A DNA stretch of 26,227 nt, taken from a virus. The stretch is taken from the UHGV virus genome UHGV-1489845. One strand, 5' to 3'. Positions 22,590 to 25,893 of this stretch are shown here, piece after piece; position 1 is the stretch's first letter, and each line of letters starts with the position of its first letter. The position numbers were made by a program, and so were the translations under genes. The notes under the pieces were generated by a model. The model was not told the origin of the DNA, made no database searches, and saw only the letters and a list, made by a program, of their open reading frames with translations.

Positions 22590-22615
<26 letters not shown>

Positions 22616-23135
22616 TCAGCAACCCCGGTATCAGTTCATCCAGCGCGGCTGCTTTGTTCATGGCTTTGATGATATCCCGTTTCAGGAAATCAACATGTCG
22701 GTTTTCCAGTTCCGGAAAACGCCGCTGCACCGACAGGGGGAGCCCGTCGAGAATACTGGCAATTTCACCTGCGATCCGCGACAACACGAAAGTACAGAAT
22801 GCGGTTTCCACCACTTCAGCGGAGTCTCTGGCATTCTTCAGTTCCTGTGCGTCGGCCTGCGCACGCGTAAGTCGATGGCGTTCGTACTCAATAGTTCCTG
22901 GCTGGAGATCTGCCTCGCTGGCCTGCCGCAGTTCTTCAACCTCCCGGCGCAGCTTTTCGTTCTCAATTTCAGCATCCCTTTCGGCATACCATCTTATAAC
23001 GGCGGCAGAGTCATAAAGCACCTCATTACCCTTGCCACCGCCTCGCAGAACGGGCATTCCCTGTTCCTGCCAGTTCTGAATGGTACGGATACTCGCACCG
23101 AAAATGTCAGCCAGCTGCTTTTTGTTGACTTCCAT
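22590..23135 (-). CDS. Nu1: Terminase small subunit Nu1
   Basis: 181-aa ORF MEVNKKQLADIFGASIRTIQNWQEQGMPVLRGGGKGNEVLYDSAAVI...; lambda Nu1; 26-nt overlap with A. Confidence 0.9.
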
Positions 23136-23376
23136 TGTTCATTCCACGGCCAAAAACAGAGAAAGGAAACGACAGAGGCCCAAAAGCTCGTTTTCAGCAC
23201 CTGTCGTTTCCTTTCTTTTCAGGGGGTATTTTAAATAAAAACATTAAGTTACAACGAAGAAGAACGGAAACGCCTTAAACCGGAAAATTTTCATAAATAG
23301 CGAAAACCCGCGAGGTCGCCGCCCCGTAACCTGTCGGATCGCCGGAAAGGACCCGCAAAATGATAATGATTATCAT
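23136..23376. other. cos region: cosB-like segment (23136..23312), cosN (23313..23324) and cosQ-side sequence including a 15-bp palindrome (23361..23375)
   Basis: Plus strand reads ...cgaaaacccgcg AGGTCGCCGCCC cgtaacctgtcggatc...; its complement GGGCGGCGACCT is the lambda 12-nt cohesive end, flanked by sequence I recognise as lambda's left and right ends. TGATAAT-G-ATTATCA palindrome at 23361..23375. Confidence 0.8.
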
Positions 23377-23523
23377 CTACATGTCACAACGTGCATCTAC
23401 GCCATCAAACCACGTCAAATAATCAATTATGACGCAGGTATCGTATTAATTGATCTGCATCAACTTAACGTAAAAACAACTTCAGACAATACAAATCAGT
23501 GACACTGAATACAGGGCAACCTC

Positions 23524-23757
23524 ATGTCAACGAAGAACAGAACCCGCAGAACAACAACCCGCAACATCCGCTTTCCTAACCAAATGATTGAACAAATTAA
23601 CATCGCTCTTGATCAAAAAGGGTCCGGGAATTTCTCAGCCTGGGTCATTGAAGCCTGCCGCCGAAGACTGTGCTCAGAAAAAAGAGTTTCGCCTGAAGCA
23701 AACAAAGAAAAGAGTGACATTACTGAATTGCTCAGAAAGCAGGTCAGACCAGATTGA
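23524..23757 (+). CDS. Hypothetical small basic protein (77 aa), predicted ribbon-helix-helix-like DNA binder; possibly DUF3950 (YnfO/YlcI-like) - unverified
   Basis: ORF MSTKNRTRRTTTRNIRFPNQMIEQINIALDQKGSGNFSAWVIEACRRRL...; basic N-terminus, then a beta-strand/helix/loop/helix pattern typical of Arc/CopG-type folds. Opposite strand to all phage late genes. Family assignment is from memory of E. coli cryptic-prophage gene neighbourhoods. Confidence 0.6.
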   Translation: MSTKNRTRRTTTRNIRFPNQMIEQINIALDQKGSGNFSAWVIEACRRRLCSEKRVSPEANKEKSDITELLRKQVRPD

Positions 23758-23814
23758 AGCAATTTAGATAATCGTGCAGACTAGGTACCTTCATATCACA
23801 TGGAAGGTACTACA

Positions 23815-24225
23815 ATGGCTCAGGTTGCCATTTTTAAACAAATATTCGATAAAGTGCGAAATAATTTAAACTATCACTGGTTTTATTCTGAACTAAAACG
23901 TCACAATGTCTCACATTACATTTACTATTTAGCCACAGAGAATATTCATCTTGTTCTTGAAAACGATAATACGGTTTTAATAAAAGGACAGAGTAAGGTT
24001 GTAAATGTAAGATTTTCAAAAAATAAATGCCTTATAGAAGCCACCTTAAAAGGATTCAAATCAGGAGAGTTATCATTTTACGAATACAGGAAAAATCTTG
24101 CTACAGCAGGGGTTTTCAGATGGATTACAAATATCCACGAAAACAAAAGGTATTACTATACCTTTGATAATTCATTACTCTTTACTGAGAACATTCAGAA
24201 CACTACACAAATATTTCCGCACTAA
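23815..24225 (+). CDS. Hypothetical protein (136 aa from internal Met), possibly DUF1398 (YdfO/YbcV-like) - unverified
   Basis: ORF 23800..24225; GGAAGG sits 7 nt upstream of the ATG at 23815 ([31 protein letters not shown]...). Strongly AT-rich relative to the flanking phage genes, so a stop-free reading frame of this length is unlikely by chance. No recognisable catalytic motif. Confidence 0.65.
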
Positions 24226-24483
24226 ATCATAACGTCCGGTTTCTTCCGTGCCAGAACCGGACTCGCTGGCATGATGAAATATGTGTACCCGGTAACCCCG
24301 GTGTGCATCGTTATTGATTATTCCCGCACACTCGCGCAGAAGGAGTTCCCCGTCGGGCTACGGTCTCTGTTAATACGGGAATACGGCGACGATACAGCGC
24401 ATGATGTGTCAGGCTTGAATACCTTTATCCTTTAAAAGGGATATCAGTTAAGTTATCCCGTGTAGGGTATAAGCCATTATCAA

Positions 24484-24510
24484 AGCCACTCTGTAGGAAG
24501 TGGCTTTTGT
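24484..24510 (+). terminator. Plus-strand terminator-like hairpin downstream of the convergent cassette
   Basis: AGCCACU-CUGUAGGA-AGUGGCU followed by UUUUGU; part of a longer imperfect inverted repeat 24474..24515. Confidence 0.4.
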
Positions 24511-24513
24511 AAT

Positions 24514-24543
24514 GGCAATAAAAAGCCCCGCGAATGCGAGGCT
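24514..24543 (-). terminator. Minus-strand terminator-like hairpin downstream of Rz
   Basis: Minus-strand RNA GCCUCGC-AUUC-GCGGGGC (one G-U pair) followed by UUUUUAUUGCC. Confidence 0.4.
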
Positions 24544-24716
24544 AAATCCTGGTATTTGTAATGACTGGCTCTTATCTCAACGCAGCCCCTTACCGCGCGC
24601 AAAATGCTCAATATCAAGCATCAGCAATGAGATGTTTAATCTGGATTCACTCCAGAAGTGAGCACCACCCTGTCTACAGAGCCAGATGTGAAGGATGATG
24701 AGTAAAATTATCGCTA

Positions 24717-25184
24717 TCATCGAAGGCATTGCGTCCTGATGTATTCCTGAAGCGTTCTCAATGCTGTTTGGTCGCGGATAATTCCGTCCCGGATACCGAG
24801 AACGTTTCGTCCAGCAACTGGAGAGAGTTCGACGGTGGCATCATTGCCCATGCCGGAGGCGCTGGAGGTTTCGGCTGAGGATGGCACAGGGCATTTTCCT
24901 TTGACGAGCACCCGACCACCATTATCAAGCTTGCGCCGAAGAGCATCATTTTCAGCTTTCGCATCAGCTAACTCCTTTGTGTATTTATCATCGAGTGCAT
25001 CAGCATCACGCTGGCGCTGCTGCATGTCAGTAATGGTGGCGTTCGCCTTCTCCAGTTCACTGGCCTTGTTATCGCGCTGTTCTTTGTAGGCGATTGCATT
25101 ATCACGGTAATGATTAACAGCCCATGACAGGCAGACGATGATGCAGATAACCAGAGCGGAGATAATCGCGGTTACCCTGCTCAT
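24717..25184 (-). CDS. Rz: Spanin inner-membrane subunit Rz (i-spanin)
   Basis: ORF 24717..25196; from the ATG at 25184 ([31 protein letters not shown]...) the N-terminal half matches lambda Rz; start overlaps the R stop as ATGA. C-terminal half diverges from lambda. Confidence 0.8.
24758..24964 (-). CDS. Rz1: Spanin outer-membrane lipoprotein Rz1 (o-spanin), embedded in Rz in the +1 frame
   Basis: 68-aa [24 protein letters not shown]...PKPPAPPAW...; signal peptide with lipobox (VVGC) and a Pro-rich segment, as in lambda Rz1; lies wholly inside Rz. Confidence 0.75.
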
Positions 25185-25678
25185 TGTTGCCCCCACAAAC
25201 AGACCTCACGCTCAATCTCACGACGAGCCATGAGACCTTTCCATTGCTTACCGCCAGCATATGTCCAGCGACGTAGCTGATCACATGCGCCTTTGATATC
25301 GCCCTGGTTTATTTTGCGAAGAAGCGTCGATGTTCTGAAATTGCCAGCACCCACGTTGTAAACGAATGAGTAAAGAGCGCCGCGCGTTGTTTCCGGTATA
25401 TCGACTTTGATGTACGGGTTAATTTGTCTGGCGACAGTGGCAAGGTCTTTATTCAAGAGTGCTTTGCATTCTGCTTTGGTATACGTTTTACCGAGCATGA
25501 TGTCTTTTCCTGTATGCCCGTGACATACAGTCCATACACCAACAATATCTTTGTATGGTATGTAGCTGACACCCTCCAGACCATCGTTACCACTTGAGCC
25601 AGTGATTAACACTGATGCTATAGCAATTGCTCCGCCACCAATAGCAGCAGCAACGGCTTTTCGTAATGATGGAGGCAT
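25181..25678 (-). CDS. R: SAR endolysin (T4-lysozyme-like muramidase with N-terminal signal-arrest-release domain)
   Basis: 165-aa ORF; Gly/Ala-rich weakly hydrophobic N-terminus ([20 protein letters not shown]), then E-x8-D-x5-T ([16 protein letters not shown]) typical of phage-21-type endolysins. Resembles E. coli DLP12 RrrD as I recall it. Confidence 0.85.
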
Positions 25679-25893
25679 TATTCACCTCTCGCAGCCTTGC
25701 GCTTATCTTCTTTAATCTTGAAATAAAGGTTTGTCAGGTACGTCAGCAGGCCAAATACCAAGCTACCCAGCACACCTATTGCTGCCCACTGTGAGGGCGT
25801 GACTTTATCGAGCAGCTGTAAAAACCAGTAGCCAGCACTGCCTGCGGAGGTGCCGTAGGCAATGCCCGTTGTTAACTTATCCATGGATTTCAT
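25678..25893 (-). CDS. S: Pinholin (phage-21 S-type class II holin) with dual-start motif
   Basis: 71-aa [63 protein letters not shown]...; two hydrophobic segments, Met1/Met4 dual start, strong RBS GGAGGTGAGG; TAATG overlap with R. Confidence 0.85.

Follow-up and report, generated by a model that had tools for sequence, protein, structure and literature searches.

Two plus-strand genes between cos and the lysis genes

The window analysed here is the whole 26,227-nucleotide stretch of the virus genome UHGV-1489845; near its end, two short genes of the YnfO/YlcI (DUF3950) and YdfO/YbcV (DUF1398) families, called gene 1 and gene 2 below, lie between cos and the lysis genes (Table 1). Both are read from the plus strand, antisense to the late operon, and all annotated neighbours are on the minus strand. 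An earlier note on this DNA had described the pair in these terms and had judged gene 2 to be about one-third G+C in a GC-rich backbone. Both descriptions hold: G+C is about 31% in gene 2 and 0.30-0.345 over positions 23700-24199, against 0.51-0.60 in the head and terminase (morphogenesis) genes. An exact copy of the cohesive-end sequence marks cosN, the right end of virion DNA; measured from this match, gene 1 begins 200 bp away and is read away from cosN.

Gene 2 is contained in a longer open reading frame (ORF; 23800-24225, plus strand) of 141 aa, whose internal ATG at 23815 gives the 136-aa version. The start at 23815 is preferred because a GGAAGG Shine-Dalgarno sequence precedes it by 8 nt and none precedes the ATG at 23800, and because RefSeq picks 23815 in an E. 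coli prophage/chromosome that is 100% identical over 23100-24750. A 57-nt spacer separates the two genes, which share one reading frame with the stops TGA (23755) and TAG (23782) between them. The apparent DUF3950-DUF1398 'fusion' in protein catalogues (P0013, P0014; 233 aa, 761 members), which if natural would have spoken for a functional coupling of the two, was rejected: it is a gene-caller read-through of these in-frame TGA and TAG codons as W and Y.

Table 1 Features of the two-gene block and its surroundings (positions in the window).
Feature	Position	Strand	Description
Nu1	22590-23135	-	Pfam
cosN 12-nt cohesive-end sequence	23313-23324	-	exact GGGCGGCGACCT match, 0 expected by chance
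Imperfect inverted repeat ATCAATTATGACG / CGTATTAATTGAT	23422-23454		13-nt arms, 85% complementary; 70-100 bp upstream of gene 1
Gene 1	23524-23757	+	77 aa, YnfO/YlcI family (DUF3950)
PdhR-box-like palindrome	23737-23753		core GGTCAGACC at 23742-23750; 3' end of gene 1; sole match in window
Candidate -10 hexamer GATAAT of a putative gene 2 promoter	23767-23772	+	relaxed promoter scan, 8/12 matches
Gene 2	23815-24225	+	136 aa, DUF1398 (YdfO/YbcV/YcgX family)
Conserved non-coding block	24226-24470		alignment; ~200 bp, downstream of gene 2
Rz	24717-25196	-	Pfam
Lysozyme (R)	25181-25678	-	Pfam
P21-type holin (S)	25678-25893	-	Pfam

Profile searches place both proteins, above cut-offs, in the families that the earlier note had named. 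Gene 1 matches Pfam PF13132 (DUF3950) with 74.6 bits (cut-off 25) and NCBIfam NF041551 (YlcI_YnfO_N) with 35.7 bits (cut-off 30), and belongs to PHROG 949; gene 2 matches PF07166 (DUF1398) with 146 bits (cut-off 22) over profile positions 1-119 of 119. Both families had been catalogued before, and no new family or system is added here. That the pair is conserved yet functionally undescribed, as the note had supposed, agrees with the 2024 review of the E. coli y-ome, which still lists ynfO and ydfO as uncharacterised; within the paper library that was searched, no title contained the names of the two families, and the few matches in abstracts were spurious word fragments. Both genes belong to the best-studied phage and also to E. 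coli K-12, yet their functions are unassigned and their database labels unsupported. They are real genes under purifying selection. The ratio of non-synonymous to synonymous substitution rates (dN/dS) is 0.04-0.10 over codons 1-50 of gene 1 against the copies of Shiga toxin-converting (Stx) phages, at dS ~0.7-1.6 with synonymous sites near saturation, and 0.18-0.36 for gene 2 against the copies of lambda, Qin and DLP12.

The conserved N-terminal domain of DUF3950 covers codons 1-50 of gene 1 (23524-23673) and is nearly invariant across the family, while the tails beyond residue 50 differ. The protein is strongly basic (isoelectric point, pI, 10.6). In its AlphaFold2 model (mean predicted local distance difference test score 69), helices 19-32 and 34-52 are predicted behind an unstructured, arginine-rich N-terminus; G33-S34-G35-N36 sits between the helices, and the N-terminal strand is unformed in the monomer. 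Aligned with hhalign, RNIRFPNQMIEQINIALDQKGSGNFS of gene 1 falls in register with FNLRWPREVLDLVRKVAEENGRSVNS of Arc, its motif N-I-R-F-P...G-S-G-N-F-S lining up with N-L-R-W-P...G-R-S-V-N-S. With P = 0.02 and reference sequences that were entered by hand, this alignment is a lead and not a test. The resemblance to Arc and Mnt of phage P22 extends to small size, basic character and the order of an N-x-R-x-P strand motif, helix, G-x-x-x-N-S turn and helix in register. In P22, Arc and Mnt are encoded by an accessory regulatory island (immI) within the late-gene region. However, no comparison of gene 1 by sequence or profile with Arc, with the ribbon-helix-helix families of Pfam or with sequences of the Protein Data Bank (PDB) was significant, and the dimerisation and DNA binding of its product are putative; a weak PHROG match leads to HicB-like antitoxins (E = 0.007). 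The earlier note's Arc/CopG-type reading is weakly supported, by the helices and the Arc register, and an Arc/Mnt-like ribbon-helix-helix fold is plausible. A match to a Pasteurella phage 'transcriptional repressor' was discarded as spurious, because it lies on the strand opposite to the annotated gene.

Upstream of gene 1, the imperfect inverted repeat of Table 1 is a candidate protein-binding site. By alignment it is kept in lambda, and HNH coding sequence takes its place in Stx phages; no operator common to the lambda-type and Stx-type upstream regions was found in this alignment. In two HK97-type Stx phages (loci L076, 2594-3228, and L079, 2429-3201), the start of the DUF3950 gene is 42 bp from that of a divergent HNH endonuclease gene, so its promoter there must fall at least partly within the HNH coding sequence.

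Gene 2 is ~76% identical (E = 1e-69) to E. coli YdfO, whose structure was solved by nuclear magnetic resonance (NMR; PDB 2HH8), and has its orphan alpha/beta fold of two alpha2-beta3 repeats; a fold search of BFVD returned nothing. The protein has a pI of 9.4 and 16% aromatic residues, and is soluble and cytoplasmic: no hydrophobic segment, signal peptide or membrane segment was found in it. Only L27, T41, Y35, N43 and G99 are invariant or nearly so across DUF1398, and none of the positions conserved throughout the family suggests catalysis. The strand-bearing parts (codons 31-56 and 99-135) evolve slowly (omega 0.05-0.12) and the helix-bearing parts (codons 1-30 and 57-98) faster (omega 0.26-0.93, the upper value being that of the window allele against lambda). 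These fast parts hint at a variable interaction surface; they do not prove positive selection.

None of the toxin families of Pfam, NCBIfam and PADLOC is matched by gene 2; in PADLOC-DB 2.0, gene 1 has no match and gene 2 only one to Csx23 (E = 0.02, 12.9 bits). A HEPN_AbiA_CTD match on gene 2 (E = 0.013) was rejected because its 15.9 bits are below the cut-off of 27, the family as a whole does not keep R29-x4-H34 (Rx4-6H), and gene 2 has an alpha/beta fold. With lambda Bor as query, tblastn found nothing in a locus identical to this region of the window, and found bor in lambda and in DLP12-type loci. These searches gave no homology to toxins, defence proteins or Bor. The labels 'head protein' (from PHROG 413) and 'putative envelope protein', attached to the DUF1398 gene in lambda (NC_001416.1, 47048-47452) and in other phage records, have no support in its sequence, fold or genomic behaviour.

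Arrangement and occurrence in relatives

The earlier note had considered this block the only one in the window that is not recognisably lambda. This is contradicted by lambda itself, where, in the same orientation between cos and Rz, we find a 64-aa ylcI-like ORF (95% identical over the first 55 residues of gene 1), an antisense ybcW-like ORF (lambdap79), the DUF1398 gene lambdap78 (76% identical to gene 2) and bor. DLP12 of K-12 shares this expanded layout as ylcI-ybcW-ybcV-borD. In both, as in the window, the homologous genes lie in the same orientation between cos and Rz, and ~75 bp upstream and ~200 bp downstream of DUF1398 are conserved. In contrast to the window, their two genes are separated by ~650 bp that hold the antisense ybcW-like gene, their gene 1 encodes 64 aa and has another C-terminus, and bor lies downstream; the window has neither ybcW nor bor, and carries a small ORF (PHROG 11822) after Rz. 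The note's likening of the site to that of bor is only approximate: in lambda, bor is found past the DUF1398 gene, before Rz.

The closest layout is that of Qin in K-12, with ynfO (234 nt), a 57-nt gap and ydfO (411 nt) in the same order and on the same strand; the pair adjoins nohA, a Nu1 homologue, and the PdhR-box palindrome is kept. The Qin ynfO product is 97% identical to that of gene 1, while YdfO is only 76% identical to the DUF1398 allele of the window. Qin is also rearranged and has gnsB/cspI downstream, where the window, apparently an intact lambda-like prophage, has Rz, R and S. The block is the compact, Qin-type form of the lambda right-end accessory region, which also occurs in most E. 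coli lambda-like prophages.

Both genes are common in E. coli. A sequence resembling the first 150 nt of gene 1 is present in 4184 of 5426 complete genomes (~77%; 9861 places), and DNA like gene 2 in 5376 of them (~99%; 8879 places, distant paralogues included); the window allele of gene 2 itself, at 99% identity or more, is found in 1063 records. An exhaustive search of 1.84 billion representative proteins gave only 188 clusters with E <= 0.001, many of them fragments, and the true range of DUF1398 is the Enterobacteriaceae. Its seemingly wide spread to Pseudomonas, Kitasatospora, Brevibacillus, Flavobacterium and others was dismissed as contamination with lambda control DNA, since the gene order there is 100% that of lambda, on contigs of ~3.5 kb or at the ends of longer ones. 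More generally, the lambda right end turns up in public 'genomes' of unrelated bacteria (L011-L032, L043-L047; P0019-P0118, and others), also in longer contigs up to whole-genome size, most likely as sequencing control DNA; noisy lambda copies swell protein catalogues with frame-shifted variants.

The two genes are independent of each other in the genomes. Among phage records, DUF3950 occurs in 155 and DUF1398 in 43, and at least 112 of the 155 have DUF3950 without DUF1398. In Stx-converting phages with HNH-TerS-TerL packaging genes, DUF3950 stands alone as the sole antisense gene between the lysis and packaging genes, and no co-directional gene follows it. At 33 divergent loci, on the other hand, DUF1398 stands without DUF3950, Nu1 or Rz in the surrounding 4 kb. 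Solo copies of DUF1398 include the K-12-type ycgX beside bluR/iraM, and others in unrelated chromosomal contexts of Citrobacter, Klebsiella, Kluyvera, Raoultella, Pseudocitrobacter and Salmonella diarizonae. An identical 77-aa gene 1 is joined to two DUF1398 alleles, 99% and 76% identical to that of the window. DUF1398 in phages nearly always follows DUF3950 and DUF3950 is often alone, the pattern of cargo inserted at a fixed site beside a resident gene; deviant base composition and presence/absence polymorphism (43 against 155 records) are traits that gene 2 shares with morons, a class of which bor and lom are lambda examples. Like these two, it is antisense to the late genes and present or absent among related phages; unlike it, they encode envelope proteins whose expression in lysogens and phenotypes are known, and DUF1398, soluble and cytoplasmic, is unrelated to them in sequence.

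The 5' block of gene 2 and its proposed control

The PdhR-box-like palindrome at the 3' end of gene 1 forms the 5' boundary of the DUF1398 module, because in a four-way alignment the homology between the compact and expanded layouts restarts exactly there, at GGTCAGACCAGATTGAA (23742 onward), ~75 bp before the DUF1398 ATG. It follows that the C-terminal tail of the 77-aa protein is a product of the junction in the compact layout. The palindrome is conserved in the Qin and lambda/DLP12 arrangements. By genomic systematic evolution of ligands by exponential enrichment (SELEX), sites for PdhR were located at ynfO/ydfO and ybcV/ybcW, namely AAcaGGTcagACCAgaT in Qin and a DLP12 site; PdhR binds both palindrome copies in vitro, and mRNA of ybcV and ybcW is ~10-fold lower in a pdhR mutant (PMC7660256). 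The candidate -10 hexamer GATAAT recurs upstream of the lambda and DLP12 copies in the corresponding stretch, with a 3-nt alignment offset, and weak -35 candidates overlap the PdhR box. Downstream, the conserved block after gene 2 is common to lambda and DLP12, where it precedes bor, and to Stx phages that have no DUF1398; indels interrupt every reading frame in it. An imperfect long inverted repeat, TTATTCCCG...CGGGAATA, lies inside the block. A structured RNA or intrinsic terminator there was considered and rejected, as folding z-scores were not significant, covariation was unsupportive and Rfam gave only sub-threshold matches.

The reading that we favour, with a little more confidence than doubt, is that the block consists of two separate units: a resident gene for a small DNA-binding protein and an inserted, host-regulated moron. 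Gene 1 would be the resident gene of the right-end position, its N-terminal 50 residues most likely forming an Arc/Mnt-like ribbon-helix-helix dimer that acts as a DNA-binding transcriptional regulator. Gene 2 would be an AT-rich moron inserted downstream of it, bringing its own 5' region of ~75 bp. As this region appears to open with a site for PdhR, the pyruvate-sensing regulator of the host, expression of gene 2 is probably under host factors or stress and not under gene 1 or a phage repressor. Its product most likely acts by binding, not catalysis: it may bind a host partner, protein or nucleic acid, and so alter the physiology of the lysogen, for example its stress tolerance.

Published data on the K-12 paralogues can be set beside this proposal. 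Expression of ydfO rises 12-fold (microarray) to 117-fold (quantitative PCR) with an imidazolium ionic liquid, and not with NaCl (PMC4077768); the same paper cites Wang et al. 2010 for increased oxidative-stress resistance upon YdfO overexpression. Overexpression of ybcV from an ASKA clone yields glycogen-deficient cells, the only effect reported, and a ybcV::kan deletion strain is viable. In BL21(DE3), ybcV/ybcW are strongly induced together with the lambda late genes.

Several points count against the two-unit proposal. In IMG/VR, 79 of 80 loci that carry the 77-aa gene 1 have DUF1398 directly downstream, and phage-type DUF1398 is almost always preceded by DUF3950, which leaves room for some functional link between the two. 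A stricter scan of the plus strand gave no consensus sigma-70 promoter ahead of either gene, and gene 2 was found to have no intrinsic terminator behind it; we thus infer the transcription units, including independent transcription of gene 2. Co-transcription in the compact layout is quite possible, given the 57-nt spacer and the lack of a terminator between the genes. The induction in BL21(DE3) may be read-through with little bearing on normal control, and the expression and phenotype data all come from K-12 paralogues, 76-78% identical to the allele of the window.

Other explanations of the pair

The earlier note had proposed a toxin-antitoxin, abortive-infection or superinfection-exclusion module, and two forms of this idea have to be weighed against separate units. 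In the first, the ribbon-helix-helix protein would autoregulate a bicistronic ynfO-ydfO operon in the lysogen, and YdfO would be the effector of superinfection exclusion or abortive infection. A common strand, the short spacer, the lack of any U-run terminator-like hairpin between or after the genes and the 79 of 80 loci with DUF1398 next speak for such an operon; a small ribbon-helix-helix gene in first place is the common layout of these modules, and the faster helix-bearing parts of DUF1398 behave as the specificity surface of an arms race might. We nevertheless consider it unlikely: at least 112 phage records have DUF3950 and lack DUF1398, many chromosomes have DUF1398 and lack DUF3950, in lambda and DLP12 the genes are separated by ~650 bp and an antisense gene, gene 2 brings a 5' block of its own, and neither a PADLOC match nor an operator-like repeat common to lambda-type and Stx-type upstream regions was found. 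No phage-resistance phenotype is reported either, the loss of ydfO being merely among the changes listed for one phage-resistant avian pathogenic E. coli mutant. The stricter form, a type II toxin-antitoxin system in which YnfO neutralises a YdfO toxin, is very improbable. It would suit a small ribbon-helix-helix-like gene upstream of a slightly larger one, the weak HicB-like match of gene 1, and the flag of ydfO as 'essential only by TraDIS' (transposon-directed insertion-site sequencing), which is more likely a mapping or H-NS artefact. But the obligate linkage of such modules is absent, DUF1398 belongs to no toxin family and its weak HEPN_AbiA match has no conserved Rx4-6H, and the solo ycgX persists partnerless. 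Moreover, YdfO was overproduced for NMR and neither it nor YbcV has a reported lethality on overexpression, the glycogen effect being the sole one of the ybcV clone; the ybcV::kan strain is viable, and so is the layout with ylcI 650 bp off.

The right end of lambda enters the cell first, and the two genes could be leading-end early genes, transcribed first on entry and countering host defences or preparing the cell. Gene 1 does begin 200 bp from cosN, with its transcription leading away from that end, both genes point inward, DUF3950 keeps its antisense right-end position in phages with a different terminase type, and the helix-bearing parts of DUF1398 evolve fast. Still, this explanation has quite a slim chance: no promoter was detected, the known anti-restriction function of lambda is located elsewhere, the proteins have no similarity to known anti-defence proteins, and both the solo chromosomal copies and the control by PdhR of the host favour a role in host cells over one during infection. 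A structural or morphogenetic role of DUF1398 is asserted by the 'head protein' and 'putative envelope protein' labels alone and is effectively refuted, since the gene is antisense to the late operon and absent from most phages with the same head and terminase genes, solo chromosomal copies exist, the protein has no signal peptide or membrane segment, and our analysis found no homology behind the labels. To our knowledge, the DUF1398 protein is not among the well-established virion proteins of lambda. A combined and improbable reading would make DUF3950 a conserved Arc-like regulator at the first-injected end, and DUF1398, with its fast-evolving helix-bearing parts on a conserved sheet, a binder whose specificity serves to protect either the lysogen or the entering phage; if true, a previously unrecognised defence or counter-defence function would lie inside phage lambda itself and be present in most E. 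coli. Taking the genes as separable, a probable DNA binder and a host-regulated protein of orphan fold, steers experiments to single-gene tests and argues against entering the two under toxin-antitoxin or defence systems.

The flanks of the block hold some further features. After the lysis cassette, a 50-aa ORF (24577-24729, minus strand), whose N-terminus is hydrophobic, shares 13 nt with the end of Rz and holds the position of bor in lambda; RefSeq calls it 'hypothetical', and it is the PHROG 11822 match noted above (E = 2e-36), present in ~36 of 80 related IMG/VR loci. It is followed on the late-gene strand by a strong hairpin resembling an intrinsic terminator, AGCCTCGC/GCGGGGCT and then TTTTATT (24524-24543, minus strand). 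A sub-threshold Rfam match to the Hfq-binding small RNA STnc560 covers 24454-24645 (minus strand; E = 0.18). On the other side, ~35 bp from cosN and within the cosQ region, a Fur-box-like palindrome, GATAATGATTATCAT (23356-23380), matches the Fur consensus at 16/19 positions on either strand, with 0 expected by chance; its lambda copy differs by one central base, and it overlaps a promoter-like site on the minus strand (GTGACA-16-TATCAT, 10/12) directed at cos and Nu1.

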